Positions 14,090-29,689 of a stretch of 35,094 nucleotides of DNA are shown piece by piece (the stretch's first letter is position 1; each line of letters opens with the position of its first letter). A program made the translations under genes and the position numbers. This DNA comes from Treponema sp. (GTDB taxonomy: Bacteria > Spirochaetota > Spirochaetia > Treponematales > Breznakiellaceae). The notes beneath the pieces were generated by a model. The model was not told where the DNA came from. It was given only the letters and a program-made list of their open reading frames with translations, and did no database searches. Location of the stretch: the NCBI GenBank assembly GCA_031284195.1, contig JAITAI010000242.1, forward strand, positions 1 through 35,094. The letters are read 5' to 3'.

Positions 14090-15085
14090 TCACGTTTTCC
14101 GGGCTGTGGATTCCCGGATGATAAGTTTATACGGAAGGATCATATCCGTCCCGGTTCCCCAGCTGCCGTTGATAAGTTTATGCAAGGTAAGGGCGGTCTG
14201 TTCTCCGATTTCATCCAAAGGCTGCCGTATGGTGGTGAGTCGGGGTATGAGATAATCCGCGATTTCGATATCATCGAATCCGACCACGGAAATATCCTCA
14301 GGTACCCGCAGTCCCTCATCCTTTAAAACCCGTAAGGCCCCGATAGCCAGTTCATCCGTAGCGGCAAAGAGGGCGGAAAAATCCCGATCCCGGAGTAAGA
14401 ATTCCCGCATACCGTACATACCGAATTCGATGGTATAATAGGGGACCTGGATCAGCCGGTTTTCATTGCGCTCAAGCCCTGCGGCTTCGTGGGCTTGAAA
14501 GAATCCTTCAGCCCGCTGCCTGCCAAAGGAAAAGCCGCCACCGCTTATCATGCAGATCTTCCGATGCCCCAGGCTGATAAGATGGCTCACCGCATCAAAG
14601 GCAGCCTGTTCCTCATTGACATGAATAGAGAGAACCCCTTGGGTACTGAAGGTAGTGGCCACCAGGGGAAGCTTCATTTTAAGAGCGTATGCATAAAACT
14701 GAGGGTCTTTCATCTCATGGATCATGATGATGCCGTCGAGGGCTTCTGACTTTAAACGGGCAAGACAGACTTCTTCACTGGCGCCGTCAAATTGCACAAA
14801 GAAAAAGAGGGTGTGATACCCAAAAAATTCAAGCCGCCGTTCAATAACGGAGAAAAGCTGGCGTTGAAACAGGTTAAAGGTATCAGTGATGATGATCCCT
14901 ACGGTAAAACTTCGCTGTAACACCATGCTCCGAGCCGCTTTATTCGGCACATATCCGGTTTCTTCTATTATTTTAAGAATCTGGTCCCGCTTTTCCGGAT
15001 TTACGTTGTGTTTTCCATTAATCACCCGGGAAACTGTAGCCGGGGACATCCCCGCCTGTTTCGCAATATCTTTGATGCTAACCAT
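14090..15085 (-). CDS. LacI-family transcriptional regulator (candidate inositol-locus repressor)
   Basis: 331 aa. N-terminal HTH IKDIAKQAGMSPATVSRVINGKHNV, followed by a periplasmic-binding-protein-like sugar-binding core. Confidence 0.9.
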   Translation of the reverse strand: MVSIKDIAKQAGMSPATVSRVINGKHNVNPEKRDQILKIIEETGYVPNKAARSMVLQRSFTVGIIITDTFNLFQRQLFSVIERRLEFFGYHTLFFFVQFDGASEEVCLARLKSEALDGIIMIHEMKDPQFYAYALKMKLPLVATTFSTQGVLSIHVNEEQAAFDAVSHLISLGHRKICMISGGGFSFGRQRAEGFFQAHEAAGLERNENRLIQVPYYTIEFGMYGMREFLLRDRDFSALFAATDELAIGALRVLKDEGLRVPEDISVVGFDDIEIADYLIPRLTTIRQPLDEIGEQTALTLHKLINGSWGTGTDMILPYKLIIRESTARKT

Positions 15086-15255
15086 ACGCTTCCCTTTACG
15101 TTTCTTGCCCTATGGTATATAAATTACCTATTAAGTACAAGCCAGGCCCCAGGGCAACAGCATTAAAAACATGGTCCATCTCTTTCATGGACTAGCAAGG
15201 GTTTTGGTATGAAAAATCCCCCGTAATTCGCGGACCTTGCTGCAACTCTATTAGG

Positions 15256-15294
15256 GTTTATGCTGGTAGCCTTTCAAAGGCCACCGGCATAAAC
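15256..15294. other. long imperfect hairpin between the dehydrogenase gene and the lacI-family gene
   Basis: GTTTATGC at 15256-15263 pairs with GCATAAAC at 15287-15294, and the inner GCCTT-TCA-AAGGC also pairs. No U-run on either strand, so terminator function is uncertain. Confidence 0.4.
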
Positions 15295-15503
15295 GCCTCT
15301 CTTCTATAGGCGTAGAAGGAAGGGCTGACCCCATTCCAGGATTTTACCTTCAAAAAGAGCAAGTCCTGGTCAGTGGTTGGCGGAATAATCCTGACCTTTG
15401 CAGCCTGTAGCCAGTTTACGTATGAGGGGGCCCTTGAAAAAAACCTCCAGCCCCTCCAAAAAAGTTCTATACGGGATACAGTAGGCCTCTAAAAAGTACT
15501 TCC

Positions 15504-16517
15504 CTAAAACCGGACCAGTTCCCCGGTTTCAAAAGCTCGCTTACAGGTATAGGCGATTTCTGAGACCCGGGTTCCGTCGTATACAGAAACCCGGGGCTTT
15601 TGCCCGCTGACGATACAATCGACAAATTCCTGGATCTCGTTACAATAAGCATCACTGAAGCGTTCCAGGAAGTTTTCACTGCACTCCCGCCGCACCCCAT
15701 GACGATCGAGGACTTCCACCAGGTTTTTCTGAGGTACCGAAGCGATACGGAGGATACCCTTGGTACCGATGATCTCCGTTTCTACGTTATAGCCGTGAGG
15801 AGCAGTACGCCCTGCAAAGAGGAACACCATACAGCCGTTCTTAAACTGCATGAGGCAGGACACATTGTCCCCGTCTTGATATTGGGCAAATTCAGGATGA
15901 GCGTAACAGCCTCCAATGGCATACACCGTTTCCGGCTCGCTCCCGGTAAACCACCGGGCGAGATCGATGTCATGGACCGCCATGTCTAAGAATTGGCCTC
16001 CAGAGTGAGGGGCAAAGGCAATGGCTCCTGCAATAAACTTTTCCGGGTCTTGGCTGTAAGATCGGAACAACACAGGGTTGCCGATTTCCCCAGCCGCAAC
16101 TTTTTGCTGAGCATATTGGTAGGAACTATCGAAACGGCGCATAAAACCCAACATGAACACCAAATCAGGATGGGCCTCTACGGCTTTTTCCGCGGCTTTA
16201 CACTCCGCCACCGTAACCCCCAGGGGCTTTTCGGAAAACACATGTTTTCCTGCAGCTAGAGCTGCAGCAATCTGGGTGGTGTGAAGTCCCGAAGGGGAAA
16301 CCAGGACCACTGCGTCTAATTCTGATAAGGAAAGCATATCCTCAAACGCGGTGAACCGGTGGGGCACCCCTAGCTTATCTGCGGTTTGGTGTAATTTAGA
16401 CTTATCCACGTCACAGAGGGCCACCAGTTCGGCATGACGGATTTTAAGGGCGATGTTTTCGGCATGGGCTACACCTAAACGGCCAAGTCCCACAGAACCG
16501 ATACGAATTTTGTGCAT
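15504..16517 (-). CDS. Gfo/Idh/MocA-family oxidoreductase, inositol dehydrogenase-like paralog
   Basis: 337 aa. IRIGSVGLGRLGVAHAENI Rossmann motif, GKHVFSEKP and GFMRRFD. Last gene of the transporter operon. Confidence 0.8.
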   Translation of the reverse strand: MHKIRIGSVGLGRLGVAHAENIALKIRHAELVALCDVDKSKLHQTADKLGVPHRFTAFEDMLSLSELDAVVLVSPSGLHTTQIAAALAAGKHVFSEKPLGVTVAECKAAEKAVEAHPDLVFMLGFMRRFDSSYQYAQQKVAAGEIGNPVLFRSYSQDPEKFIAGAIAFAPHSGGQFLDMAVHDIDLARWFTGSEPETVYAIGGCYAHPEFAQYQDGDNVSCLMQFKNGCMVFLFAGRTAPHGYNVETEIIGTKGILRIASVPQKNLVEVLDRHGVRRECSENFLERFSDAYCNEIQEFVDCIVSGQKPRVSVYDGTRVSEIAYTCKRAFETGELVRF

Positions 16518-16539
16518 ATTTTTTTCTCCCTAAACTAAA

Positions 16540-16604
16540 ACAGGCAGGGAACCTAGGTCCCCTGCCTGTTCACGGTCATGAACTAAGGCTGTTCATGACC
16601 GTGA
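16540..16604 (-). other. two back-to-back near-perfect hairpins in the permease-dehydrogenase intercistronic spacer
   Basis: 16540-16569 is a 30-nt palindrome, ACAGGCAGGGAACCTAGGTCCCCTGCCTGT. In 16570-16604, TCACGGTCATGAAC pairs with GTTCATGACCGTGA around the loop TAAGGCT. Confidence 0.7.
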
Positions 16605-16629
16605 ACTAAGCATGAAATGATGGATCCCG

Positions 16630-17640
16630 TTAATCCCGTTTGGCGTTTTTTCTCATGTCGATGATGACCGCCCCAACGATGATGAGGCCCTCCACGACCT
16701 TCTGCCAATAAGCGTTTACCCCAAGGAGGGTAAGGCCGTTCCGCATCACCGAAAGGACCAAGGCCCCCACAAAAGCCCCTCCGATGGTACCAATGCCCCC
16801 GGAATGAGAGGTACCGCCGATGGTAGTCGCGGCAATGGCGGTCAATTCATAACCGTCTGCAGCTCCAGGATGAACGCTACCTACCCGGCCTGCAAAGACC
16901 ACTGCGGCAAGGCCTGCCAAAAGACCGCAGTACATGTAGATCATGACCAGATTCTTGGGCACATTCACCCCGGATACTTCTGCGGCAGTGATGTTCCCTC
17001 CGATGGCATAGGTGTTTTTGCCAAACCGGGTTTTATTTAACAAGATGTAACTTATCACAATCATGATAAAGTAAATGATAACTGGTATCGGGATGACGTT
17101 AAAAAGCTTCCCGCTTAAGGCCGTGAGGGAGGGGATCATGTTACTCACTGGCCGCCCCCCGGTGTAGATCAGGGCAAAGCCCCGGGACACGGTCATCATA
17201 CCCAAAGTAGCGATGAACGCGGGGATCCTGGTTTTAGCGATTAACAAGCCGCTGATACTCCCGCATACTCCGCCGATAATGAGGGCCGTCAGAATAGGCA
17301 CGATGACCGGCATCACCGGCAGGGAGGGAAAGTACTTTTCCGTGGCGGTAGCGGTTTGCGCAAGACTTGCGGCGATCACCCCGGAAAAAGCCAGGACCGA
17401 ACCCACCGAGAGGTCGATGCCCTTGGATATGATGACAAAGGTCATCCCCAAGGCCATAATGCCAAAGATGGAACTCTGGGTTAACACATTGAAGATATTG
17501 GTGGCGCTCAAGAATGCGGGCTGTACAATACTCAATAAGATGATCATGATCACCAGAACGATAATAATGCCATACTTCTTGGCAGTTTGCCCGATATTGA
17601 TATGTCCCATAGTAACCTTAGTTAAGGCTGCAGATTTCAT
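16630..17640 (-). CDS. sugar ABC transporter permease (RbsC/AraH-like, CUT2 family)
   Basis: 336 aa, about 9-10 hydrophobic segments, GIDLSVGS motif. The start abuts the ATPase stop. Confidence 0.9.
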   Translation of the reverse strand: MKSAALTKVTMGHINIGQTAKKYGIIIVLVIMIILLSIVQPAFLSATNIFNVLTQSSIFGIMALGMTFVIISKGIDLSVGSVLAFSGVIAASLAQTATATEKYFPSLPVMPVIVPILTALIIGGVCGSISGLLIAKTRIPAFIATLGMMTVSRGFALIYTGGRPVSNMIPSLTALSGKLFNVIPIPVIIYFIMIVISYILLNKTRFGKNTYAIGGNITAAEVSGVNVPKNLVMIYMYCGLLAGLAAVVFAGRVGSVHPGAADGYELTAIAATTIGGTSHSGGIGTIGGAFVGALVLSVMRNGLTLLGVNAYWQKVVEGLIIVGAVIIDMRKNAKRD

Positions 17641-19185
17641 TTACCTCATCTCCTTTGCTTTCTTTTCTTTGTGGGCTTGGTAATATTCGTCTATGGTATT
17701 GGTGGCATAAGCCATTAATTCTTCCTGGGTCAGGTCCGGGGAATTCTCGAGGATACCCGTTACCTTGCCCTGATGCATTACCATGATCCGGTCGCTCATC
17801 CCCATAACCTCTGGGAGTTCCGAAGAAATCATCACGATAGACTTTCCTTCCTCGGCAAGCTTGCTAAGCAACCGGTGGATCTCCGATTTGGTAAGCACGT
17901 CGATACCCCGGGTAGGCTCGTCTACGAACAGAATCTCCGGATCCGTCATAAGCCAACGGGCAACCAGTACCTTCTGTTGATTTCCCCCGCTTAAGTTCCC
18001 AATATGCTGTTCCAGCCCTGCGGTTTTGACCTGGATCTTCTTGACGTATTCTTCACATTCCGCCCGCATATAGGTTTCCCGGATAAGCTTAACCTTGTTG
18101 AGAAATTTAGGAATGTTGGCGATGACCATGTTGAGCTGCACTCCCAGCATGGGGAATATCCCGGAACTCCGGCGGTCTTCCGTGAGCCAAGCCATCTTGG
18201 CGTTGATGGCCTCCTTCGCGTTCTTGATTTCCACTTTTTTCCCATCAATAAAGATTTCGCCCCCGCTCTTGGGCCGCACCCCAAAGATGGTCTCCACCAC
18301 CTCACTACGGCCCGCGCCGACCAGTCCTGCAATCCCCAGGATCTCTCCCCGGCGTACCGTAAAGGAAACATCCTGAAAATACTTCCGGTTAGAAAGGTTC
18401 CTGACTTCAAATTTGACTTCCCCTATGGGACACTTCACCTTGGGGAACAGGTCCTCCACATTCCGGCCTACCATCATAGTGATGAGTTGATCCACCTTGA
18501 GCTTGGCCGTATCTTCTGCGCCGATGTACTCCCCGTCTCGGTACACGGTGATCCTGTCGGTGATTTCGTAGACCTCATCAAGTTTATGGGAAATAAAGAT
18601 GATACTCTTCCCCTGGGATTTGAGCTTTCGCATAATCACGAAAAGCTGCTTGATCTCTTTTTCCGCGAGGGCTGAAGTAGGTTCATCCATGATGATGAGC
18701 TTTGAACTGTAGGAAATCGCCCGGGCAATTTCGATCATCTGCATTTTCGCCACCGTCAGGGAAGCCATAAGGGTGCGGGGATCCTCCTCTAGGTCAATCT
18801 CTTTGAGGACCTCCTTGGTCATCGCATACATTTTCTGATGATCGATCAGCCCCAAGGGGCTAAGGGGCTCCCGGCCAAGCCAGATGTTTTCCATGATAGG
18901 CCGGTGGAGCACTGGGCTCAATTCCTGATGGATCATGGAGATACCCATCTCTAGGGCTTGAGCAGGGCTATAAGGTCCTTGAAGCTTCCCATCAAAGATA
19001 ATTTCTCCGCTGGTTGGATGCTGCATCCCAATGATACACTTCATCAAGGTCGATTTACCCGCCCCGTTTTCTCCCATGAGGGCATGAATCTCTCCAGGGC
19101 GGACCTTAAGTTCAACCCCCCGCAGCGCCTTAACGCCGGGAAAGGTTTTTACAATATTTTTCATTTCAAGTAGATACGCTGCCAT
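17641..19185 (-). CDS. sugar ABC transporter ATP-binding protein, duplicated ATPase (RbsA/MglA-like)
   Basis: 514 aa. Walker A GENGAGKST, signature LSGGNQQK, Walker B ILFVDEPTRGID and IIMDEPTSAL. Two nucleotide-binding domains. Confidence 0.92.
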   Translation of the reverse strand: MAAYLLEMKNIVKTFPGVKALRGVELKVRPGEIHALMGENGAGKSTLMKCIIGMQHPTSGEIIFDGKLQGPYSPAQALEMGISMIHQELSPVLHRPIMENIWLGREPLSPLGLIDHQKMYAMTKEVLKEIDLEEDPRTLMASLTVAKMQMIEIARAISYSSKLIIMDEPTSALAEKEIKQLFVIMRKLKSQGKSIIFISHKLDEVYEITDRITVYRDGEYIGAEDTAKLKVDQLITMMVGRNVEDLFPKVKCPIGEVKFEVRNLSNRKYFQDVSFTVRRGEILGIAGLVGAGRSEVVETIFGVRPKSGGEIFIDGKKVEIKNAKEAINAKMAWLTEDRRSSGIFPMLGVQLNMVIANIPKFLNKVKLIRETYMRAECEEYVKKIQVKTAGLEQHIGNLSGGNQQKVLVARWLMTDPEILFVDEPTRGIDVLTKSEIHRLLSKLAEEGKSIVMISSELPEVMGMSDRIMVMHQGKVTGILENSPDLTQEELMAYATNTIDEYYQAHKEKKAKEMR

Positions 19186-19246
19186 GTGTCATCCCCTTAT
19201 AGCAAACCTTATAGCAAAATGGACTAAAGATGGAAAACTAAAAAAC

Positions 19247-20197
19247 CTATTGATACTGAGCCAAATTTTCTTTGGTAATGAGCACAAAAGGTACCCAGGT
19301 GATTGGTTCTGGGGATTCTCCCCGTAGGACTTTGTAAACTATTTCCGCAGCTCCCCTTCCTTGGCCTGCCGCATCTTGAAGCACCGTGGCGGCGAGGCTG
19401 CCATCTGCCACTGCGGCCTTGGCATCAGGAATCGCGTCCACTCCCATGACCAGCACATCGGTACGGCCTGCTGCTTTGAGGGCTTCTACTGCGCCCAAGG
19501 CCATTTCATCGTTATTGGCCAAAATGCCCTTGAGATCCGCTCCGTATGCGGTAAGCCAGTTTTCGGTGAGGCTCAGGCCCTGATCCCGCTGCCAGTTTCC
19601 GGTTTCCTCAGCGAGCACAGTGATACCGGGGAATTTACGGTTAATTATATCCTTGTTCCCTTCAGTGCGCAGGAGGGCCCCTTCGTTATCCAGCTTACCC
19701 ACCAAAATGGTCACCCCTCCAGATCCTCCAAGGAGATTACCCATGGCTTCCATCTGCATTTGCCCTGCAATCACTTCCTGAGATCCCACATAGTACACGT
19801 TAGGAGGAAGGGACTGATTACTAAAAGGATTCCGGTTGACATATACCAAAGGAATATTGGCTTCTTTAGCCGCATTGGTAATCGATTCAGTAGCATTGGT
19901 ATTCACCGGTACTACAATCAAGGCTTTAATTCCCTGGGCAATCAACGTGTTGGCCAGATCCTGCTGCTTGATCACATCCTCCTGGGCATCCTGAAAGATA
20001 AGGTCGTACTCAGGTTTATCCGCGAAAAACGCCCTGGTTTCGTTCATGATGTACCCCTGGAAGGTATCATTGAAGTTGTTACAGATGTACCCGATCCTGG
20101 TCTTGGCACCGCTGCCGGCCGTTTTTTGCCGGGAACATCCCAGAAATCCTGACAGCCCAATCAACGCCGCCATACACACCCATACTGTTTTTTTCAT
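19247..20197 (-). CDS. periplasmic sugar (probably inositol) binding lipoprotein, RbsB-like
   Basis: 316 aa. Signal peptide MKKTVWVCMAALIGLSGFLGCS with a relaxed lipobox. Type I periplasmic binding fold. First gene of the minus-strand operon. Confidence 0.88.
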   Translation of the reverse strand: MKKTVWVCMAALIGLSGFLGCSRQKTAGSGAKTRIGYICNNFNDTFQGYIMNETRAFFADKPEYDLIFQDAQEDVIKQQDLANTLIAQGIKALIVVPVNTNATESITNAAKEANIPLVYVNRNPFSNQSLPPNVYYVGSQEVIAGQMQMEAMGNLLGGSGGVTILVGKLDNEGALLRTEGNKDIINRKFPGITVLAEETGNWQRDQGLSLTENWLTAYGADLKGILANNDEMALGAVEALKAAGRTDVLVMGVDAIPDAKAAVADGSLAATVLQDAAGQGRGAAEIVYKVLRGESPEPITWVPFVLITKENLAQYQ

Positions 20198-20280: not shown

Positions 20281-20309
20281 AGTATCCACCTGCTTTCCAG
20301 AATTGTCAA
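20281..20309 (-). promoter_or_regulatory. putative sigma-70 type promoter of the transporter operon
   Basis: The minus strand reads TTGACA (20309-20304), a 17-nt spacer, then GATACT (20286-20281). Confidence 0.45.
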
Positions 20310-20407
20310 CAAAAATTTGATCTATATAATTATTTATAGGATAATGAATTGTATATAAAACATACAAAATCTTTTCAAACAAAACCAAAAAAATTAAAAA
20401 ATATGCC

Positions 20408-20436
20408 TTTACAAAATAGGATATTCAATATAATAT
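20408..20436 (+). promoter_or_regulatory. putative promoter of the iolG-tkt operon
   Basis: TTTACA at 20408-20413, then TATAAT at 20429-20434 (15-nt spacer) or the overlapping TAATAT at 20431-20436 (17-nt spacer). The surrounding region is AT-rich. Confidence 0.45.
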
Positions 20437-20447
20437 TATGAAATAAG

Positions 20448-20461
20448 TAAAAACGTTTTCA
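20448..20461. promoter_or_regulatory. LacI/CcpA-type operator O2 (TAAAAACGTTTTCA)
   Basis: 13 of 14 matches to the cre-type palindrome, with an AAAACGTTTT core. Sits immediately downstream of the putative -10 of the plus-strand promoter. Confidence 0.55.
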
Positions 20462-20517
20462 TGTACTAATCATGGGTGGATTGGAAAAAGAAGACGAGCA
20501 AAAGGATCGGAGGAACC

Positions 20518-21543
20518 ATGGCAGATACAGTAAGGATAGGGCTTATTGGCGTTGGCCGGATCGGGAAGATCCATGCTGAAAATAGTGCTCAGCGTGTTCC
20601 CGGTGCCAGGCTTGAAGGAATTGCAGATATCGTATTACCCCAGGAACAGGTATCCTGGGCCCGGGGGCTGGGAGTCCGACTCCTTTCCACGGATCCCCAG
20701 GATATACTGAAGGATCCCGCCATTGACGGAGTGGTGATTTGTAGTGCTACCGACACTCACGCGGATCTGATCATCGCCGCCGCAGCTGCGGGAAAGCATA
20801 TCTTCTGCGAAAAGCCCATAGATCTGTCGGTTCCCCGGGTGAAGGCAGCTCTGGCTGCGGTGAAAGAGGCAGGGGTTACCCTCCAGATAGGCTTTAACCG
20901 CCGCTTTGATCATAACTTTAGGCGGATTCGAGAACTCATCCAGGCAGGGGACCTGGGAACCGTGCAGCTTATCAAGATCACCTCCCGGGATCCGGCTCCA
21001 CCTCCTCCGGCGTATGTGGCCGGTTCTGGGGGTATCTTCATGGACATGATGATCCATGATTTTGATATGGCCCGGTTCCAGGCAGGGAGCGAAATCACCC
21101 AGGTCTATGCTGCCGGGGCAGTGCTCATTGACCCGGAAATTGGAAAGGCCGGAGATGTGGATACTGCTATCGTAACCCTTACCTTTGCCAATGGCGCACT
21201 AGGGGTAATCGATAATTCCCGGAAAGCGGTTTATGGGTACGATCAGCGGGTAGAGGTGTTTGGCTCCAAAGGCGCGGCCCTAGCGGAAAACGACCTCCCC
21301 AATCAGGTAAGGGTATCCACTGCTGCGGGAGTTACCGGTGAAAAGCCCCTGCACTTTTTCCTGGAACGGTACAAAGAGGCTTATATTGCCGAGCTGGCAT
21401 CCTTTGTGGATGCGGTCTTGCACCATAGCCCTCCGAAAGTAAGCGGAGCAGATGGTTTGGAAAATATGTACGCGGCTCTGGCTGCGGGGAAATCTCTCAA
21501 AGAAAAGCGGCCTGTTTTCATTGATGAAGTCCGGGTTGCGTAA
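20518..21543 (+). CDS. iolG: myo-inositol 2-dehydrogenase (Gfo/Idh/MocA family)
   Basis: Start taken at MADTVRIGLIGVGRIGKIHAEN, preceded by a GGAGG RBS. Contains GKHIFCEKP, GFNRRFD and ITSRDP. First gene of an iolB/D/E operon. Confidence 0.85.
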   Translation: MADTVRIGLIGVGRIGKIHAENSAQRVPGARLEGIADIVLPQEQVSWARGLGVRLLSTDPQDILKDPAIDGVVICSATDTHADLIIAAAAAGKHIFCEKPIDLSVPRVKAALAAVKEAGVTLQIGFNRRFDHNFRRIRELIQAGDLGTVQLIKITSRDPAPPPPAYVAGSGGIFMDMMIHDFDMARFQAGSEITQVYAAGAVLIDPEIGKAGDVDTAIVTLTFANGALGVIDNSRKAVYGYDQRVEVFGSKGAALAENDLPNQVRVSTAAGVTGEKPLHFFLERYKEAYIAELASFVDAVLHHSPPKVSGADGLENMYAALAAGKSLKEKRPVFIDEVRVA

Positions 21544-21565
21544 GTAAAAGAAAGAAGGAGAAAAC

Positions 21566-22366
21566 ATGCAATTTCATCATAAGCCACCCTTTGGCCGAGG
21601 ATACACCCCCCTGGTGCTCAGGAGTGGAGCCACAGCAGATATGCTCATGGATTTCGGGGTTTTGCGTCTTTTACCGGGTGAAACTTACGAGAGTTATTCC
21701 GAAACCGATGAGCGTCTATGGCTTTTATCCCAAGGTATGGGGTTCATGGACGTGGGCAAGGAAGGATCCTTTGAAGTTTCCCGGCTCAATCTTTTTGACT
21801 ATTCCCCTTGGTGCCTTTCAGTTCCGGCAAAACAGCGGGTAACTATCGGCGCGTTGGACCGGGTTACTGAGTTTTACTATGCGGCCACGGACAACCCCCG
21901 GGAATTTAAGGTAAAATGCTACCCTCCTGAAGCATGCCGTAGCGAATTTCGGGGGGAAGGGACCATGCGGGAAACATCCACCCGGATCGTGCGGACCATC
22001 TTTGACGGCACCAACCGTCCTGAATCAAACCTGGTGATAGGGGAGGTTATCGGCGTACCGGGGAAATGGTCGAGCTATCCTCCCCATCATCACCCTCAGC
22101 CGGAGATATATCACTATCGGTTCCTTCCGCCTCAGGGTTTTGGGCTCACCGCCATCGGGGATACCCCCTATATCATCCAGGATCGGGATACTATCCTCAT
22201 CCGGGACGGCGAGGATCATCCTCAGGTAACCGCGCCGGGTTATGCTATGTGGTACCTCTGGGTGATCCGGCATCTAGAGAATAACCGTTATGGACCCCAG
22301 TACGTTGCCAAAGCCCACCAATGGGTAAGCGGGCCGGAAGAAAACATCTGGCAGCCCAAACGGTAG
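21566..22366 (+). CDS. iolB: 5-deoxy-glucuronate isomerase
   Basis: 266 aa cupin with the diagnostic GKWSSYPPHHHPQPEIYHY motif. RBS AGAAGGAGA. Confidence 0.88.
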   Translation: MQFHHKPPFGRGYTPLVLRSGATADMLMDFGVLRLLPGETYESYSETDERLWLLSQGMGFMDVGKEGSFEVSRLNLFDYSPWCLSVPAKQRVTIGALDRVTEFYYAATDNPREFKVKCYPPEACRSEFRGEGTMRETSTRIVRTIFDGTNRPESNLVIGEVIGVPGKWSSYPPHHHPQPEIYHYRFLPPQGFGLTAIGDTPYIIQDRDTILIRDGEDHPQVTAPGYAMWYLWVIRHLENNRYGPQYVAKAHQWVSGPEENIWQPKR

Positions 22367-22451
22367 GAGGATCCGGTACTGCCATCTTGGATGGGCGGTA
22401 TTTTTTAAAGCGTTCACAGGAGAAAAGCGTAATAATAAAGAAGGAGCATAG

Positions 22452-24311
22452 ATGAAAACAGTACGACTTACGATGGCCCAAGCATTGCTGCGTTTTTTAG
22501 ATAATCAATATATCGAAGTAGACGGGGAAGAAATAAAATTTGTAGCCGGAATTTTCGGTATATTCGGGCATGGCGTGGTAGTTGGACTTGGAGAGGCTTT
22601 AGCTGCGGGCGATCAGGGCCTGCGCTTTTATCAGGCTAAAAATGAGCAGGGTGGGGCCCATGCGGCTATGGGATTCGCCAAGCAGCACAAGCGTCGGCAG
22701 ATCATGGCGGTATGCAGTTCCATAGGTCCGGGAGCCCTCAATATGGTAACTGCCGCAGGAACTGCTTCGGCAAACCATATCCCGGTGCTGTTTTTACCCG
22801 GGGACGTGTTTGCCTGCCGTCAGCCGGATCCGGTGCTGCAGCAGATTGAAAACCCGGTGGACTATACCGTAAGCGCCAGCGATGCATTCCGGGCGGTGAG
22901 CCGTTACTGGGATCGGGTGAACCGGCCGGAACAGCTCATGACCGCCCTGATCAACGCCTTCAGGGTCTTGACGGATCCTGCGGAAACCGGGGCGGTTACC
23001 CTGTCTCTTCCCCAGGATGTGCAAGGGGAAGCCTGGGATTACCCAGAGGCGTTTTTAGCCAAACGGGTACATCACCTAGAACGCCGGCCTCCGACACAGG
23101 GCCAGATCCAGCGGGCCTTGGGAATGCTCAAGGCTGCCAAGAAGCCCCTGGTGATCTGCGGTGGGGGAGCCGGGTTCTCCGGGGCAGGCCCCGCATTGGA
23201 ACAGTTCTGTACGGCCTATCACATCCCCTTTGGAGAAACCCAGGCAGGCAAGGGGAACATCCTATGGGATCATCCCTATAACCTTTCCGGTATTGGTACT
23301 ACCGGCAGCTTGGCGGCAAACCGCCTCGCCAAAGAGGCGGACCTGATCATAGCGGTGGGTACCAGGTTGGGGGACTTTACCACCTGTTCCAAGTGGCTTT
23401 TCCAGAATCCTGCGTGCCGGATCTTGGGGATCAACATCGCTCCCTTTGACGCTTACAAGATGAACGGTGAACCTATCATTGCGGACGCCAAACTGACCCT
23501 GGAAGCCATGAACGCCGGCGCATCCCCTTACCGGTCGGATTGGGGTGGACGGATCCAGGAGGTTCGAGCCGAATGGAAGGCAGAGGTAGACCGGCTCTAC
23601 CAGGAAGAAGATCCCCTTGCCCTTTCCCAAGTACGGGTCTTAGGAGAACTCAACGACCGGCTTCTCCCTTCGGATGGGATCGTGGTGTCCGGTTCAGGGT
23701 CCATTCCCTCGGATATGCAGCGGGTATGGCGGGTTAGAACCAAAGGTACCTACCACATGGAATACGCCTTTTCCTGTATGGGCTATGAAATTGCCGCTGC
23801 CTTAGGGGTTAAAATCGCCCAGCCGGATAAGGAAGTGGTAGCCTTAGTAGGGGATGGGGCCTATACCATGCTCCACACCGAACTGTTGACCGCAGTACAG
23901 GAGCGGAAGAAGATCATCGTGGTGGTCCTGGATAATGCAGGGTTTCATTGTATTGATAACCTGCAGCATAGCCAGGGGATCGTCCATTTTGGCAATGAAT
24001 GGAAGACCCGGGATGTCCAAAGCGGGCGTTTGGAAGGGGCTTCTATGCAGGTGGACTACGCTAAAAACGCCGAAAGCTGGGGGGCTTTGGGTATTCGGGT
24101 GCGAACCCTAGAAGAACTCCGGGCAGGGGTAAAGCAGGCCCTGGCAGCTTCGGGACCGGTGGTGATCGATGTTAAGGTCAGCCCTAAGTCCATGACCCAC
24201 GGGTATGAAAGCTGGTGGCGAGTTGGAACGGCTCAAGTATCCGCCAATCCTGAAGTAGTGAAGGCTGCCAACCAGATGGCAGCGGAACTTGCCAAGGCGA
24301 GAACCTTGTAA
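22452..24311 (+). CDS. iolD: 3D-(3,5/4)-trihydroxycyclohexane-1,2-dione acylhydrolase (ThDP enzyme)
   Basis: 619 aa. N-terminus MKTVRLTMAQALLRFLDNQYIEVDGEE is typical of IolD. ThDP motif GDGAYTM...LDN. Confidence 0.9.
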   Translation: MKTVRLTMAQALLRFLDNQYIEVDGEEIKFVAGIFGIFGHGVVVGLGEALAAGDQGLRFYQAKNEQGGAHAAMGFAKQHKRRQIMAVCSSIGPGALNMVTAAGTASANHIPVLFLPGDVFACRQPDPVLQQIENPVDYTVSASDAFRAVSRYWDRVNRPEQLMTALINAFRVLTDPAETGAVTLSLPQDVQGEAWDYPEAFLAKRVHHLERRPPTQGQIQRALGMLKAAKKPLVICGGGAGFSGAGPALEQFCTAYHIPFGETQAGKGNILWDHPYNLSGIGTTGSLAANRLAKEADLIIAVGTRLGDFTTCSKWLFQNPACRILGINIAPFDAYKMNGEPIIADAKLTLEAMNAGASPYRSDWGGRIQEVRAEWKAEVDRLYQEEDPLALSQVRVLGELNDRLLPSDGIVVSGSGSIPSDMQRVWRVRTKGTYHMEYAFSCMGYEIAAALGVKIAQPDKEVVALVGDGAYTMLHTELLTAVQERKKIIVVVLDNAGFHCIDNLQHSQGIVHFGNEWKTRDVQSGRLEGASMQVDYAKNAESWGALGIRVRTLEELRAGVKQALAASGPVVIDVKVSPKSMTHGYESWWRVGTAQVSANPEVVKAANQMAAELAKARTL

Positions 24312-24420
24312 CTCTGGGGGATGGGGAGGATGTCTTCTTGCATCCCCTAAAGGCTTGTAATAAAGACCGGAGAATTTTGAAAAAAGATCGGAGAATTTTC
24401 CAAAAACATAAGGATAAAAA

Positions 24421-25305
24421 ATGGAACCAATTCACCTTGGGATAGCTCCTATAGGCTGGACCAACGACGACCTTCCTGAACTGGGCGGGGAGATTTCCTT
24501 TGAACAATGCCTCAGTGAAATGGCCTTGGCCGGGTTTGTGGGGACTGAAGTGGGGAATAAGTACCCCAAAGATCCAGCTACCCTCAATAGAGCCCTGCAA
24601 CTCCGGGGCCTGACCATTTGTAATGCCTGGTTCAGTTCATTTTTGACCACTAAGCCCTATGAGGAGGTGGAAGCTGCCTTCATTGCCCACCGGGATTTTC
24701 TGTATACAGTAGGCGCCCGGATCATCGGAGCAGCAGAACAGGGTCATTCTATCCAGGGCCAAGCCAAACCCATCTTTGAGGCTAAGCCGGTTTTTACTGA
24801 GGAGGAATGGCGCCGTCTCTGCGAGGGCCTTAACCGCTTAGGAAAAAGGGCTGCAGAAAAGGGGATGCACCTCACCTATCACCACCACATGGGAACCGGA
24901 GTGCAGACCGCAGATGAAATCGACCGGCTTATGGAAAACACCGATCCTCACCTGGTGGGGCTCCTCTACGATACCGGGCATCTGGTGTTCTCTGGGGAGG
25001 ATCATCTAGCGGTCCTGGACAAGTGGATAGGCCGTATCGGTCACGTGCACCTCAAGGACATGCGGGCCCCGATGCGGGAAAAGGCGAAGCGTGAAAAATG
25101 GTCCTTTCTCCAGGCGGTGAAGGCCGGGGTCTTTACCGTACCAGGAGACGGCTGCGTGGATTTTGTCCCGGTTTTCAATGCGCTCAAGGAAGCAGCGTAT
25201 ACAGGCTGGTGGGTGGTAGAAGCAGAGCAAGATCCTGCCAAGGCAAACCCGCTAGAATATGCTATTAAAGCGCGAAGGTATATTAAGGAAAAAGCCGGTA
25301 TCTAG
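24421..25305 (+). CDS. iolE: myo-inosose-2 dehydratase (xylose-isomerase-like TIM barrel)
   Basis: 294 aa. LGIAPIGWTNDDLPELGG N-terminus, HVHLKD and WWVVEAEQDP. Confidence 0.9.
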   Translation: MEPIHLGIAPIGWTNDDLPELGGEISFEQCLSEMALAGFVGTEVGNKYPKDPATLNRALQLRGLTICNAWFSSFLTTKPYEEVEAAFIAHRDFLYTVGARIIGAAEQGHSIQGQAKPIFEAKPVFTEEEWRRLCEGLNRLGKRAAEKGMHLTYHHHMGTGVQTADEIDRLMENTDPHLVGLLYDTGHLVFSGEDHLAVLDKWIGRIGHVHLKDMRAPMREKAKREKWSFLQAVKAGVFTVPGDGCVDFVPVFNALKEAAYTGWWVVEAEQDPAKANPLEYAIKARRYIKEKAGI

Positions 25306-25347
25306 TCGTGTTACGGCGAACCGGCAGGTTTGGTGTAAGGAGCGTTT

Positions 25348-26613
25348 ATGCGATTTGGGATTAACACCTTAGACGATATGGAGGTTCAAGGTAAGACCGT
25401 GCTATGCCGCATTGATATCAATCAGCCGGTAGATCAGGCCACGGGGACCCTTAAGGATACCACCAGGATAGAGGCGTGTACGCCAACCCTCAAAGAATTG
25501 AGTGATAAAGGGGCCAAGGTGGTCCTGTTGGCCCATCAAGGGAGCGATATTGAATACAAGAATTTTTATACCACTGCTCCCCATGCCCAGGTCTTGTCTA
25601 AACTTTTGGGAAAACCGGTCCGTTTCATCGATGATGTCTGCGGTCCTGCTGCTCGAAAGGCCATCCAGGCCCTGAAACCAGGGGAACTGTTACTTTTGGA
25701 TAATGTCCGTTTTGTGGCAGAAGAACAAACCCTCTTTGAAATGAAACTCCAGCTTTCCCATGCTGCCCAGGCAAAAACCCTGTTGGTAAAGAAGTTGGCC
25801 CCCTTAGCGGATCTGTATGTCTGTGACGCCTTTGCCGCAGCCCATCGGGATCAGCCCAGTCTCTGCGGGTTTGAACAGGTCCTCCCCAGCGCCATGGGGC
25901 GGCTCTTTGAAGCGGAATTCTGCGTTATCTCCTCTTTGATGGAAAATCCGGAACGGCCCTGTGTGTTTGTCCTGGGGGGATCTAAGATAAACGACGCCTT
26001 CCTCATGATGAGTACCGTCCTGGGGGGAGGCATCGCTGACCAGGTCCTTACGGGGGGCCTCGTCGGGGAGGTCCTCCTCTGGGCAGAGGATAAGGACATT
26101 GGGGAAAGGGCCCGGACTTTCATCAGGAAGGAGGGTTACGAATCCCTGGTTGGGACTGCCCGGGAACTCCTTGCAAAATACCGGAACCGGATCCTGATGC
26201 CCGAAGACTTCGCCGGGGTTAAGGAGGGGCAGCGGGTAGAATATCCCCTGGGAAAGATCCCTGGAGATACCCTGATCCTGGACATCGGGACCGAAACCGC
26301 AGCTCGCTACCAGACCCGGATCCGTGCGGCCAAGACGGTCTTCGTCAACGGCCCCATGGGGGTCTTCGAGGAGGCCCCCACAGAGCAGGGTACCCGGATG
26401 GTGTGGGACGCCTTGGGGGACACGGCAGCCTATACGGTTATCGGCGGTGGGGATAGCATCACCGCCACGAAGAAGTACGGCAAGACAAAGGATATCAACT
26501 ACATCTGTACCGGTGGAGGGGCGCTTATCCGTTTCCTCACCGGGGAAGAATTGCCGGTGGTAAAAGCCCTCCGGTATGGTTCAAAACTGACCAAAAAGCA
26601 GCTTGAGCGGTAA
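25348..26613 (+). CDS. phosphoglycerate kinase family protein, archaeal-type; physiological substrate uncertain
   Basis: 421 aa. VLCRIDINQPVD, VVLLAHQG, LLLDNVRF, DAFAAAHRDQPS, VFVLGGSKI, VNGPMGVFE, TGGGALIRFLTGEELP. The overall layout resembles archaeal PGKs rather than bacterial ones. RBS AAGGAG. Confidence 0.85.
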   Translation: MRFGINTLDDMEVQGKTVLCRIDINQPVDQATGTLKDTTRIEACTPTLKELSDKGAKVVLLAHQGSDIEYKNFYTTAPHAQVLSKLLGKPVRFIDDVCGPAARKAIQALKPGELLLLDNVRFVAEEQTLFEMKLQLSHAAQAKTLLVKKLAPLADLYVCDAFAAAHRDQPSLCGFEQVLPSAMGRLFEAEFCVISSLMENPERPCVFVLGGSKINDAFLMMSTVLGGGIADQVLTGGLVGEVLLWAEDKDIGERARTFIRKEGYESLVGTARELLAKYRNRILMPEDFAGVKEGQRVEYPLGKIPGDTLILDIGTETAARYQTRIRAAKTVFVNGPMGVFEEAPTEQGTRMVWDALGDTAAYTVIGGGDSITATKKYGKTKDINYICTGGGALIRFLTGEELPVVKALRYGSKLTKKQLER

Positions 26614-26682
26614 AAGAAAAACCAGTCTTTGGGCTGTTTTTCCAGAGCCTTTTTCTATAATAGGGAAATTAAGGAGAAAACA

Positions 26683-27708
26683 ATGGTTAAGGTAGGCGTA
26701 GCAGGCTACGGGGTAATCGGTCAGCGCTTGGCTGACGGCGTGGCCTTACAGAAGGACATGGAACTGGTGGGTATTGCAGACCTGGCTCCCACCCTTTCCA
26801 TCCGGGCGCTCAAAGAGCGGGGAATGCCCTATGATCTGTATCTCGTGGAAGGGGCAAATAAAGCCGCATTTGACGCAGCAGGTATTCCGGTGAAGGGCAG
26901 TTTTGCGGACCTTATCGGAAAGGTTGACATCATGCTCGATTCTTCCCCAGGAGGTGTAGGGGCCAAAAACAAGGAACGCTATGAAAAAGCGGGGATTTCA
27001 GCGATCTTCCAGGGAGGTGAAAAGAACTCCGTGGCGGATGTGTTCTTTCATGGGTATGCTAACTACGAAAAAGGCCTGGGGGCCAAGTATTTGAAGCTCA
27101 CCAGTTGTAATACCACAGGGCTTATCCGTTCGGTGGATTGCCTTGACCGGAATTATGGGGTTGACCGGGTGGCCATCACCATCATCCGGCGGGTAGCGGA
27201 TCCTGGGGACTATCACCGGGGATTGACGAACGCCTTGCAGATGGATAAGGCCCCCTCTCATCAGGCACTGGATCTCATGACCATCATGCCCCACGTGGAG
27301 GCTACCGGTATTTTGGTACACACCCCGGTAACCCACGGACATATCATAACCGTGGTAGCCCACGGCAAGCAGGGGAAGATAAGCAAGGATATGGCCCTAT
27401 TAGCCTTTAAGGCCCATGACCGTATCCGGGTGGTGCGTATTGAAGATGGATTTTTAGGGAATGCCTCCTTCTTTCGGTATGCCCGGGACCTGGGAAACCC
27501 CCGGGGGGATATGTATGAAATTGGGCTTTGGGAAGACAGCATCGTGGAAAGCGGAGACCACATCATGTATGCCATCAACATTCCCCAGGAGTCGGTTACC
27601 ATCCCGGAAACCATGGATGCGATTCGGGCCGCCCTGCGTATGCAGCAGGATTCAGCTTCAGGTACAGCGGAAACCAATAAATACCTGGGCTTAGGTAAAT
27701 GGAAATGA
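26683..27708 (+). CDS. type II (archaeal-type) glyceraldehyde-3-phosphate dehydrogenase family protein; physiological substrate uncertain
   Basis: Start at MVKVGVAGYGVIGQRLADGV after RBS AAGGAG (26671-26676). Contains AIFQGGEK, the catalytic-Cys motif SCNTTGL, IIRRVADP and PQESVTIPETMDAIRA. Confidence 0.85.
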   Translation: MVKVGVAGYGVIGQRLADGVALQKDMELVGIADLAPTLSIRALKERGMPYDLYLVEGANKAAFDAAGIPVKGSFADLIGKVDIMLDSSPGGVGAKNKERYEKAGISAIFQGGEKNSVADVFFHGYANYEKGLGAKYLKLTSCNTTGLIRSVDCLDRNYGVDRVAITIIRRVADPGDYHRGLTNALQMDKAPSHQALDLMTIMPHVEATGILVHTPVTHGHIITVVAHGKQGKISKDMALLAFKAHDRIRVVRIEDGFLGNASFFRYARDLGNPRGDMYEIGLWEDSIVESGDHIMYAINIPQESVTIPETMDAIRAALRMQQDSASGTAETNKYLGLGKWK

Positions 27709-28565
27709 GTGTACCAGACCTGCCTGCCCTCAAGGAGATGACCTGTTTTGCCGCGCGGATCCGCTTGGAAACTCTCAAGTGTGTGGGCGCCCGGGGTTTT
27801 GGTCATCTGGGGGGAGCTTTGAGTATTGTGGAGACCCTGGCGGTCTTATACAGTGGGGTTATGCGGATCGATCCCCATAATCCCCAGTGGCCGGATCGGG
27901 ACAAGCTGGTGATGTCCAAAGGACATGCCGGGCCTGCGCTCTATGCAACCTTGGCGCTCAAGGGCTACTTTCCCCTGGACTGGCTTTCGACCTTAAACCA
28001 ACCTGGAACGCGGCTCCCCAGTCACTGCGATAGGAAGCTGACTCCCGGTATTGATATGACCACCGGGTCCCTAGGACAGGGGGTCTCCACTGCCATAGGC
28101 CTTGCCTTGGCCCAGCGCATGGACGGTAAGGACCGCCGGACCTACCTTATTACCGGCGACGGAGAGCTTAACGAGGGACAAACCTGGGAGGGGGCCCTTT
28201 TTGCCCCTCAGCACAAGCTTACGAACCTGACATGGCTTGTGGATTACAACCACAAGCAGCTTGACGGCGAAACGAAAGATATCCTCGACCTGGGGGACCT
28301 GGAGGCAAAATTTGCGGCTTTCGGCTGGGCTACGGCGTCGGTGAACGGGAACGACCTCGCAGCGGTAGTTCGGGCGCTGGAAGCGGCTCGCCAAGAGACT
28401 GTAAAGCCCTTTTGTATAGTGCTTAACACCGTCAAAGGCGCAGGGGTTCCCTTGGTGGCTGCCATAGCCCTCAATCATCATATCGTGTTTGATGGGGACC
28501 TGCGGGCAAAGGCCATAGCTGCTATGGAACAGGAAGTCGCGGCTTTGGAAGGAGCATATACATGA
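27705..28565 (+). CDS. transketolase, N-terminal (PP-domain) subunit of a split transketolase
   Basis: GHLGGALSIVE, SKGHAGPALYA, ThDP motif GDGELNEGQTWE...VDYN. An ATGA overlap with the GAPDH-like stop gives the start at 27705; the alternative ATG at 27699 is also possible. Confidence 0.9.
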   Translation: MSVPDLPALKEMTCFAARIRLETLKCVGARGFGHLGGALSIVETLAVLYSGVMRIDPHNPQWPDRDKLVMSKGHAGPALYATLALKGYFPLDWLSTLNQPGTRLPSHCDRKLTPGIDMTTGSLGQGVSTAIGLALAQRMDGKDRRTYLITGDGELNEGQTWEGALFAPQHKLTNLTWLVDYNHKQLDGETKDILDLGDLEAKFAAFGWATASVNGNDLAAVVRALEAARQETVKPFCIVLNTVKGAGVPLVAAIALNHHIVFDGDLRAKAIAAMEQEVAALEGAYT

Positions 28566-29506
28566 TAGTATACGACGGCAGTATGGATACGGAAGGGTAC
28601 AAAAACGTCTTTGGCCGGGTGATGGAGGACTTATGCAACGAAGATCCGGATGTGGTGTATCTGGATGCGGATCTGATGAATTCCTTTGGCACCCACAGCT
28701 TATGGAAGCGGAATAAGCGTCAGGCTATTAACTGCGGTGTGAGTGAAGCCAATATGATGGGTATTGCCGCAGGACTTTCCGCAGGGGGGAAGAAGCCTTA
28801 TGTCCATACCTTCGGCCCTTTTGCGTCTCGACGCTGTTATGATCAGACCTTTCTCTCAGTAGGGTATGCGGGAAACAGCGTCCGGGTGTTTGGTTCTGAT
28901 CCAGGGGTAACTGCGGCCTTTAACGGCGGTACCCACATGCCTTTTGAAGACATGGCCCTGATGCGGGCAGTACCTCAGAGTACGGTCATCGAAATCAGCG
29001 ATGGCGTCATGCTGGAAAAGCTGATGCGCCTCACCAAGGACAGACCTGGACTTACCTATTTCAGAACGACCCGGAAAGCCTATCCCAAAGTGTACAGCCC
29101 GGATCACCCCTTGAGCATTGGCAAAGGGGAAGTGTTGCGGGAGGGAACAGACCTGACCATTATCGCCTGCGGACTTATGGTGGGGGAAGCCCTGAAAGCC
29201 GCGCAGCTCCTGCAAGAGCAGGGTGTCCGTACCCGGGTAGTGGATATGTTTACGGTTAAGCCCTTGGACGCGGCTCTGGTCATCCGCTGCGCTCGGGAAA
29301 CCGGTCGTATCCTCACCGCTGAGAACCACAACATCATTGGCGGCCTGGGGGATGCAGTGGGGGCAGCCTTGCTGGAAAGCGGGGTCCCGGTGAAGATGCG
29401 TAAACTGGGGGTTAAGGACGAATTCGGCTCCGTAGGTCCCCAAGAGTACCTCATGGAGCACTACGGTCTCAGCGCTGCCCACCTGGTACAGAGTTCATTT
29501 TTTTAA
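28562..29506 (+). CDS. transketolase, C-terminal (Pyr + C-terminal domain) subunit
   Basis: 314 aa. INCGVSEANMMGIAAGLS, HTFGPFASRRCYDQ. ATGA overlap with the upstream subunit. RBS GGAAGGAG. Confidence 0.9.
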   Translation: MIVYDGSMDTEGYKNVFGRVMEDLCNEDPDVVYLDADLMNSFGTHSLWKRNKRQAINCGVSEANMMGIAAGLSAGGKKPYVHTFGPFASRRCYDQTFLSVGYAGNSVRVFGSDPGVTAAFNGGTHMPFEDMALMRAVPQSTVIEISDGVMLEKLMRLTKDRPGLTYFRTTRKAYPKVYSPDHPLSIGKGEVLREGTDLTIIACGLMVGEALKAAQLLQEQGVRTRVVDMFTVKPLDAALVIRCARETGRILTAENHNIIGGLGDAVGAALLESGVPVKMRKLGVKDEFGSVGPQEYLMEHYGLSAAHLVQSSFF

Positions 29507-29516
29507 AGTTTTTCTT

Positions 29517-29554
29517 CATACTTCGAGCACTCCCAATACCGTGTTCGAAGTATG
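29517..29554 (+). terminator. hairpin downstream of the operon (possible terminator)
   Basis: CATACTTCGAGCAC at 29517-29530 pairs with GTGTTCGAAGTATG at 29541-29554 (14 bp including one G-U), with a 10-nt loop. It is not directly followed by a U-run; CGCTTTTT lies 17 nt downstream. Confidence 0.45.
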
Positions 29555-29689
29555 TGCGTACAGGGTCGCGCTTTTTCTACCCGCTGTAGACTGTTCCAGG
29601 GGAAAGAATTCTGCCGAAGGAAGGCGGTCTTTACGGTATTCTGGTGTTTATGGTATAATAGGCTTCAGAAAAAAGAAAAAGAGCGAAAA

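Follow-up and report, generated by a model that had tools for sequence, protein, structure and literature searches.

A 35,094-nucleotide stretch of DNA from a Treponema sp. of the family Breznakiellaceae (contig JAITAI010000242.1 of assembly GCA_031284195.1, analysed whole and here called the window) encodes, within a gene cluster for inositol breakdown, one protein resembling phosphoglycerate kinase (PGK) and one resembling type II glyceraldehyde-3-phosphate dehydrogenase (GAPDH). Our best reading of the sequences is that these would be neofunctionalised archaeal-type PGK and type II GAPDH genes, supplying the last, ATP-yielding steps of a kinase-free inositol pathway that depends on transketolase. 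Transketolase probably yields D-malate semialdehyde from 5-dehydro-2-deoxy-D-gluconate (DKG), with the pair converting the semialdehyde to D-malate plus ATP, and we favour this function because genomic context, chemistry and conserved substitutions agree. An earlier note on this DNA, which had described both proteins as archaeal-type homologues changed at positions that contact the substrate phosphate and possibly suited to a carboxylate substrate, is partly supported: it was right about the kinase, the distinct clade and the likely carboxylate substrate, and wrong about the site to which the GAPDH histidine belongs.

The pair and its landmarks are laid out as follows (positions in the window):

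25348..26613, + strand: PGK-like kinase (proposed D-malyl-phosphate:ADP phosphotransferase); Pfam PGK 385 bits, member of a PGK clade lacking Arg65
25531..25563, + strand: codons for AHQGSDIEYKN, with Ser66 (25543-25545) at the Arg65 position and Tyr70 as a one-residue insertion
26671..26676, + strand: AAGGAG ribosome-binding site of the GAPDH-like gene
26683..27708, + strand: type II GAPDH-like dehydrogenase (proposed phosphorylating D-malate-semialdehyde dehydrogenase); NF003251 393 bits (cut-off 185), TIGR01546 292 bits (cut-off 233), PDB alignments, clade-specific positions
27253..27273, + strand: codons for PSHQALD, with Gln194 (27262-27264) in place of archaeal His194

The GAPDH-like reading frame is open from a TTG at 26629; the gene likely starts at the ATG at 26683 instead, giving 341 amino acids, because the AAGGAG precedes that ATG.

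Archaeal-type family and altered residues

The 421-residue PGK-like protein matches the Pfam PGK profile (PF00162) over its whole length (1-379/379) and passes no NCBIfam equivalog, its sole NCBIfam match being the bifunctional PGK/TIM model at 308 bits against a cut-off of 883. Its closest solved relative is 2cun (286 bits, versus 225 bits for 1vpe), the PGK of Pyrococcus horikoshii. In the alignments to these chains the H-Q-G-S-D of the window protein, part of AHQGSDIEYKN at residues 62-72, lies on H-Q-G-K-P in 2cun and H-L-G-R-P in 1vpe. A pattern scan covering a single genome for each species gave 189 PGK-like relatives, of which the best 80 were kept; these carry serine at the Arg65 position (the S subgroup) and come from termite-gut Treponema, Oscillospiraceae, Christensenellaceae, Lachnospiraceae, one Coriobacteriaceae genome, and deltaproteobacterial and Peptococcaceae metagenome-assembled genomes (MAGs). 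A D subgroup of 259 relatives, Kosmotoga included, has aspartate there and reads AHQGDTLDY in 79/79 loci; many of its carriers are cultured (Clostridium magnum, Pelosinus, Fonticella, Caloramator, Lucifera, Desulfosporosinus).

In PGK, according to a review, Arg65, Arg122 and Arg170 hydrogen-bond the 3-phosphate, His62 contacts the bridging oxygen, Asp23 and Asn25 contact the 2-oxygen, and Asp218 pairs with Arg65 and Arg170 in the closed form (PMC7729029). The basic 3-phosphate patch (Arg65, Arg122, Arg170 and His62) is incomplete in the PGK-like clade, where Arg65 alone is gone: the position is serine in 80/80 S-subgroup loci and aspartate in 79/79 D-subgroup loci, hence one or the other in 159/159, whereas the equivalents of Arg122 (NVR) and Arg170 (AHR) are kept in 80/80 and 79/79 loci, as are those of His62, Asp23 and Asn25. 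The absence of a basic residue at this 3-phosphate ligand, as PMC7729029 defines it, thus bears out what the earlier note had seen in the kinase; one of the three phosphate-binding arginines is lost, the other two being retained. In the D subgroup (loci L154-L233) the aspartate amounts to a charge reversal in 79/79, yet the operon partners are the same as in the S subgroup.

The motif AHQGSDIEY is invariant (80/80 S-subgroup loci). The catalytic and nucleotide-side motifs of PGK are GGxKxxDA, GGGDS and TGGGA; in the S subgroup the lysine and aspartate of the first are present in 80/80 loci and GGGDS in 79/79, while TGGGA occurs in 68/78 proteins, with TAGGA or TGGGS in the others. Other positions fixed in 78 clade members as against 110 relatives with arginine or lysine at the Arg65 position are the inserted Tyr70, N72, T76, C387 and an insertion of approximately six residues after NVRF that contains K133 and H138. 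Compared with the archaeal PGK 2cun, the protein shares a full-length two-domain match, H-Q-G, Asp23/Asn25, Arg38, Arg122, Arg170, the GGxKxxDA lysine and aspartate, GGGDS and TGGGA, and the clade differs by serine or aspartate for Arg65, the invariant inserted Tyr70, N72 in place of D, the approximately six-residue insertion (K133, H138) and cysteine for serine in I-S-TGGGA. It also differs in its bacterial hosts, its place in a catabolic operon and its status as a second copy.

For the GAPDH-like protein, the only solved relatives at E<=1e-5 were 2czc, 1cf2, 2yyy and 1b7g, all of archaeal type. The translation contains SCNTTGL, AIFQGGEK, PSHQALD (residues 191-197) and PQESVTIPETMDAIRA, and PSHQALD aligns with P-S-H-H-(G/A)-(P/K)-D in all four chains. 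The register of both motifs as given in the earlier note is thus correct, and, as it also stated, the catalytic cysteine of the GAPDH and the nucleotide and glycine motifs of the PGK are intact. Counting along the alignment with 1cf2, the Methanothermus fervidus GAPDH according to PMC12041015, reproduces the literature numbering of type II GAPDH residues. That review, citing Charron 2000, gives Cys140 and His219 as catalytic, places Ser139, Asn141, Arg167, His193 and His194 in a sulfate-occupied phosphate site, and assigns the phosphate of glyceraldehyde 3-phosphate to Arg167 and Arg168 (PMC12041015).

The change from PSHH to PSHQ is therefore His194 to glutamine, in the site assigned to inorganic phosphate. 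Glutamine is found there in 147/147 GAPDH-like genes and, in the alignment set, in 68/68 against histidine in 46/46 archaeal sequences, and the other residues of this second anion site (Ser139, Asn141, Arg167, His193) are kept in the clade. Arg167 and Arg168 are retained too (RR in 70/70 of the S subgroup and 75/75 of the D subgroup), as are TSCNTTGL (70/70 and 76/76) and THGH (70/70 and 77/77). The GAPDH-like neighbours of the S subgroup have RRVADPGD, [S/T]HQA[V/L]D and HTPVTHGH in 70/70 each, and those of the D subgroup share the signature (HQA 77/77, THGH 77/77, RR 75/75). We rejected the reading of PSHQ as the loss of a substrate-phosphate ligand, since His194 lies in the other anion site as described in PMC12041015; on this point the earlier note, which had counted it with the substrate-phosphate patch, does not stand, Arg167/Arg168 being kept.

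Further differences fixed in the GAPDH-like clade are Gly195 to Ala, His221 to Ile, a new His in place of Leu217, vHQES to iPQES, PEN to PET, GPIN to GLTN and, preceding S-C-N, VV to LT; each holds in 68/68 clade members, with the archaeal state in 40 to 46 of the 46 archaeal sequences. Position 121, where F replaces S, is also a fixed difference. The archaeal comparison comprised 46 sequences (32 Thermococcales-like and 14 divergent) from one archaeal phylum, in which 81/81 searched genomes had the gene. Relative to the archaeal type II enzymes (1cf2, 2czc, 2yyy, 1b7g), the window protein has Ser-Cys-Asn, the His219 equivalent, Arg167/Arg168 and His193 in common, and the clade differs at His194 and at the other positions just listed.

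An exhaustive HMMER search of 1.84 billion representatives returned 15986 PGK relatives, and 122 full-length sequences from the best 150 were aligned, the 28/150 outside 370-470 amino acids being dropped. At the Arg65 column these 122 have R in 103, K in 3, D in 5, S in 4, G in 2, Q in 2, and A, M and a gap in 1 each, hence R or K in 106/122. The residue changes in the two proteins are not chance, because they are invariant in the relatives and contrast with R or K in 106/122 PGK relatives and H in 46/46 archaeal GAPDHs. Of the 10 nearest PGK clusters, two are named (Kosmotoga and a deltaproteobacterial MAG).

A PGK tree of 144 rows was computed with IQ-TREE in quick mode (LG+G4, SH-aLRT as the sole support measure) after thinning the window clade to every fifth of 78, and the housekeeping PGK of the same genome served as its root. 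In this tree the H-[L/F]-G-R-P rows split from 138 archaeal-type rows with a support of 100. Four Thermococci PGKs are among the 138, with P0024 tied to Thermococci, and the PGK-like clade is nested within this archaeal-type radiation: a single 29-row clade (SH-aLRT 97) unites all S, G and A rows with 4/5 D rows, and four rows without R or K (P0102, P0113, P0022, P0071) fall outside it. The GAPDH tree (59 rows) separates 37 bacterial rows from 22 archaeal rows, the latter from one phylum, with an SH-aLRT of 100. Profiles, solved relatives and tree thus agree with the earlier note that both proteins are archaeal-type, and its suggestion that the iol-linked copies might form a distinct clade sharing the substitution is confirmed by the 29-row group.

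The operon and its counterparts in other genomes

Pfam and NCBIfam matches and open reading frame coordinates place the iol, PGK-like, GAPDH-like and transketolase genes in a tight plus-strand operon running from iolG to the C-terminal half of transketolase. Around the pair listed above it comprises:

20303..20330, + strand: best promoter-like match in the gap between the divergent transcripts, ahead of iolG, TTGTCA-16-TATAAT, 11/12, a consensus match only
20476..21543, + strand: iolG, inositol 2-dehydrogenase; TIGR04380 468 bits (cut-off 355)
21566..22366, + strand: KduI/IolB-family isomerase, a candidate divergent IolB; Pfam KduI 175 bits, TIGR04378 iolB 84 bits against a cut-off of 205
22452..24311, + strand: iolD, thiamine diphosphate (ThDP)-dependent ring-opening hydrolase; TIGR04377 892 bits (cut-off 715)
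24421..25305, + strand: iolE, inosose dehydratase; TIGR04379 428 bits (cut-off 290)
27699..28565, + strand: transketolase N-terminal half; Pfam Transketolase_N 172 bits, its start overlapping the GAPDH-like stop by 10 bases
28562..29506, + strand: transketolase C-terminal half; Pfam Transket_pyr and Transketolase_C, with a 4-base overlap with the N half

Both genes of the pair are second copies in this genome (311 contigs, 81.5% complete), contig C62 of which carries an ordinary pgk (Pfam 489 bits) adjoining an ordinary gap (Gp_dh_C 211 bits); identity between the PGK-like protein and that housekeeping PGK is 31%. Neither iolC (best 114 against a cut-off of 300) nor iolA (best 21.6 against 448) was found above cut-off in the 81.5% complete genome. 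For the IolJ aldolase step there are two class II aldolases on other short contigs and none in the operon. In a census of 151 genomes of the same order, which are kin, so that the pattern is not a statistical test, iolD was present in 31/151 and iolC in 0/31 of these. The PGK lacking Arg65 occurred in 27/151 (13 recovered with the window protein as query and 14 more with a D-subgroup query), in 25 of these genomes together with iolD; a further 6 genomes have iolD only, and 2 of the 120 genomes without iolD have the PGK-like gene. The sole genome of the census with iolC has neither iolD nor the PGK-like gene.

Neighbouring genes were counted in 80 loci per subgroup, in the S subgroup by tblastn at >=50% coverage. 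The 80 S-subgroup loci contain the GAPDH-like gene (n = 70), a LarA homologue (n = 58), the transketolase N half (n = 45) and C half (n = 43), iolE (n = 38), iolD (n = 35), an IolB-like gene (n = 35), malic enzyme (n = 35) and iolG (n = 20). Nine of the 10 S-subgroup loci without a GAPDH-like gene end <400 bases from the PGK-like gene, two of these nine hold a C-terminal GAPDH-like fragment at the contig edge, and only L090 is truly without the gene. In the D subgroup the counts were GAPDH-like 75, iolG 40, transketolase 39, iolD 39, iolE 39, IolB-like 38, LarA 37 and malic enzyme 24, commonly in the order malic enzyme, GAPDH-like, PGK-like, transketolase N and C, iolB, iolD, iolE, iolG, LarA. 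The pair thus travels with iolG, iolE, iolD and iolB-like genes, a split transketolase, a Mar2-like LarA and malic enzyme, and never with iolC.

At four loci without iol and transketolase genes (L035, L042, L078, L082) the pair stays with LarA and malic enzyme. Two of these (L035:3291-9026 and L082:246-4282) have acetoin-dehydrogenase-like E1 alpha/beta, E2 and E3 genes beside the pair, LarA and malic enzyme, replacing transketolase, the set in L035 being accompanied by a 3-hydroxyacyl-CoA-dehydrogenase-like gene; it may be an oxidative ThDP-dependent cleavage yielding malate semialdehyde. At L078:1448-12424 and L085:4214-14143, which have no iol genes, the pair occurs with TRAP transporter, SDR, Asp/Glu-racemase-family and 3-hydroxyisobutyrate-dehydrogenase-like proteins, along with PdxA in L078 and glycerate kinase in L085, a context that suggests another acid-sugar input. 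A deltaproteobacterial MAG (L036:3721-10245) has a class III aminotransferase, an alanine dehydrogenase and a dimethylamine-methyltransferase (MtbB) homologue directly upstream of the pair, suggesting an amine route to malate semialdehyde; the MtbB-like frame contains one in-frame TAG and reaches its full 463 amino acids if this is read as pyrrolysine.

The LarA homologue of T. primitia ZAS-10 (L024) matches the malate racemase Mar2 (6d6z) best, at 244 bits versus 184 for lactate racemase. In the lineage of the window LarA and malic enzyme are not near the pair; a malic enzyme ortholog lies on contig C140 (86% to the L018 copy, a neighbour of the pair in Treponema TIM-1). A LarA homologue is present in 4/4 near-complete relatives, in three of them no more than about 4 kb from the PGK-like gene, and on a separate contig in the same-genus genome. 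An open reading frame on contig C17 (L094:1315-2754, 479 amino acids) was considered as an operon-type LarA and rejected, its weak Lar_N match (32.5 bits) not marking an ortholog; it adjoins a phosphofructokinase gene. An exit of D-malate through D-malate/tartrate dehydrogenase (TIGR02089) is not supported, none being above cut-off in five genomes.

Divergently from the operon run a transporter, a second IolG and a regulator (14090-20197):

14090..15085, - strand: LacI-family regulator; Pfam LacI and Peripla_BP_3
15504..16517, - strand: second inositol 2-dehydrogenase, IolG-like; TIGR04380 377 bits (cut-off 355)
16630..20197, - strand: sugar ABC transporter; Pfam BPD_transp_2, ABC_tran x2, Peripla_BP_4 (permease 16630-17640, ATPase 17641-19185, binding protein 19247-20197)

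The transporter is kept beside the operon in close relatives. A look-up of RNA evidence for 20400-29600 listed none. The second IolG, beside the transporter and just above cut-off, has 36% identity to the operon IolG and may serve another inositol isomer. Outside these genes the content of the window is unrelated. A GT4 glycosyltransferase (29552-30994) follows transketolase, occupies the same place in only 6/80 related loci, all close Treponema kin, and has no apparent link to the pathway. Further away (8568-12725), the minus strand encodes an aldo/keto reductase with a fused 4Fe-4S dicluster domain; facing it are genes for a DAO/BFD-type FAD oxidoreductase and for a pyridine-nucleotide-disulphide oxidoreductase, which resemble an anaerobic glycerol-3-phosphate dehydrogenase set.

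The proposed route and its rivals

In the route that we propose, IolG, IolE, IolD and the IolB-like isomerase would produce DKG, as in the established iol pathway, and the split transketolase would then remove its C6-C5 ketol unit. Viewed from the ketol end, DKG would be a 2-ketose whose C4 and C3 hydroxyls are D-threo as in fructose and xylulose (our own Fischer-projection derivation), and its cleavage is plausible because this arrangement is needed in transketolase donors. The product, OHC-CHOH-CH2-COO-, would be D-malate semialdehyde, configured like D-glyceraldehyde 3-phosphate, the phosphate ester being replaced by a carboxylate. The GAPDH-like enzyme would convert it with phosphate to D-malyl 1-phosphate, and the PGK-like enzyme would form D-malate and ATP by phosphate transfer to ADP; the missing Arg65 would suit a shorter, singly charged distal group still held by Arg122, Arg170 and His62. 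L-malate and pyruvate would follow in most relatives, through a Mar2-like LarA racemase and then malic enzyme, the racemase standing ahead of malic enzyme because the product has the D configuration and L-specific enzymes follow. In the carnitine pathway, too, malic semialdehyde goes to D-malate, and L-malate would require a racemase (PMC11353897).

Several observations weigh against this route. The GAPDH-like change sits in the inorganic-phosphate site and alone is no argument for a carboxylate, and the aspartate of the D subgroup is odd beside one. The LarA homologue of L024 has H-Y-F after the catalytic His where Mar2 has H-Y-K, a loop linked to substrate binding in the Mar2 paper (PMC7583248), so that malate is unproven as the substrate of this homologue. 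The window's own genome, 81.5% complete, gave no LarA ortholog by tblastn (E<=1e-5) or genome search. Among the 31 genomes with iolD, six have neither the PGK-like gene nor iolC, and the census overstates the association, as kin genomes are not independent. The proposal also names no acceptor for the ketol unit of transketolase. The carboxylate substrate suggested in the earlier note is thus consistent with the independent evidence of gene context.

The pair might instead act on another non-phosphorylated 2-hydroxy aldehyde, for example converting D-glyceraldehyde to glycerate or tartronate semialdehyde to tartronate, with LarA racemising that acid. Some LarA homologues are glycerate-specific, according to PMC11770544, the L024 homologue departs from Mar2 at the H-Y-K loop, and the iol-free contexts (TRAP transporter, SDR, racemase-family, 3-hydroxyisobutyrate-dehydrogenase-like) suggest other acid-sugar inputs. 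Cleavage of DKG by transketolase, however, can leave only the C4 acid aldehyde, 35/80 and 24/80 loci have a linked malic enzyme, and the retention of two of the three PGK-patch arginines and of both GAPDH arginines favours an anionic over a neutral distal group, which makes such a substrate unlikely in our view. It is more doubtful still that the two proteins are what databases call their relatives ('phosphoglycerate kinase' and 'type II glyceraldehyde-3-phosphate dehydrogenase'), that is, ordinary glycolytic or gluconeogenic isoenzymes for triose phosphate from inositol breakdown. Those names, the intact catalytic residues and the passing of both NCBIfam type II GAPDH cut-offs speak for it; yet a housekeeping gap-pgk pair is already in the genome, no iolC or iolA was found there to make triose phosphate from inositol, Arg65 is gone in 159/159, no PGK equivalog model is passed, and the linked LarA racemase and malic enzyme have no part in triose metabolism.

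The module could also run reductively, ATP activating malate, the product being reduced to malate semialdehyde and transketolase building a sugar acid. This we consider very improbable: the companions of the pair in the operon (uptake transporter, LacI repressor, IolG/E/D) serve catabolism, ring cleavage by IolD is a hydrolysis, taken as irreversible, and the carriers are fermenters that profit from substrate-level ATP. The GAPDH and PGK reactions are themselves reversible, and a synthetic malyl-phosphate route to 2,4-dihydroxybutyrate shows that the chemistry is feasible (PMC12104201). Oxidation of D-malate semialdehyde to D-malate with gain of ATP is thus the function that we prefer for the pair.

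Relation to known systems and significance

The canonical myo-inositol pathway of the Bacillus subtilis type uses IolG, E, D, B, C, J and A. IolG, IolE and IolD are encoded here, with the IolB-like isomerase as the candidate for the remaining one of the first four steps, and instead of IolC, IolA and an operon aldolase, none of which was found, there are transketolase, GAPDH-like and PGK-like genes; the proposed route would spend no ATP at IolC and would gain one. With the carnitine pathway of Acinetobacter baumannii it would share the intermediate malic semialdehyde and the product D-malate. The carnitine-pathway enzyme, unlike the proposed pair, is a non-phosphorylating aldehyde dehydrogenase with Cys/Glu catalysis that conserves no ATP, and D-malate is disposed of there by a decarboxylating dehydrogenase rather than by racemase and malic enzyme (PMC11353897).

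Among the LarA-family malate racemases Mar1, Mar2 and LarAH62 (PMC7583248, PMC11770544), the linked LarA homologue matches Mar2 best. Their in vivo role was left open by their discoverers (PMC7583248, PMC11770544), for whom a malic enzyme neighbour was a clue in the case of Mar2 (PMC7583248). A supplementary table of that 2020 paper has PGK beside 3/18 group 4 homologues, without comment (PMC7583248), and the main texts of both LarA papers make no mention of inositol, glyceraldehyde or phosphoglycerate. A full-text search of CC-licensed PMC papers and bioRxiv found no literature joining inositol and transketolase with malate semialdehyde, malyl phosphate or D-malate, although a subscription paper is possible.

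For a wider claim we see the chances as evenly balanced: that this is a natural D-malyl-phosphate module for substrate-level phosphorylation, allowing a kinase-free, ATP-positive fermentation of inositol in hundreds of gut and sediment anaerobes, that it serves as a common sink for malate semialdehyde from transketolase, acetoin-dehydrogenase-like complexes and amine/transaminase routes, and that it is the missing source of D-malate for LarA-type malate racemases. If true, the racemases would gain a physiological role, and malyl-phosphate chemistry, which according to PMC12104201 is now engineered from mutated aspartate-pathway enzymes, would have natural enzymes. Thousands of bacterial 'type II GAPDH' and 'phosphoglycerate kinase' database entries would be misnamed (4807 GAPDH-like relatives at E<=1e-20 among 8000 candidates scored), with a single missing arginine as the mark of the altered substrate in an enzyme that otherwise follows the textbook. 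Inositol, including that derived from phytate, ranks among the major substrates of animal guts, and a different energy yield would have to be expected for carriers of the route among termite-gut spirochetes, Oscillospiraceae, Christensenellaceae and clostridia.

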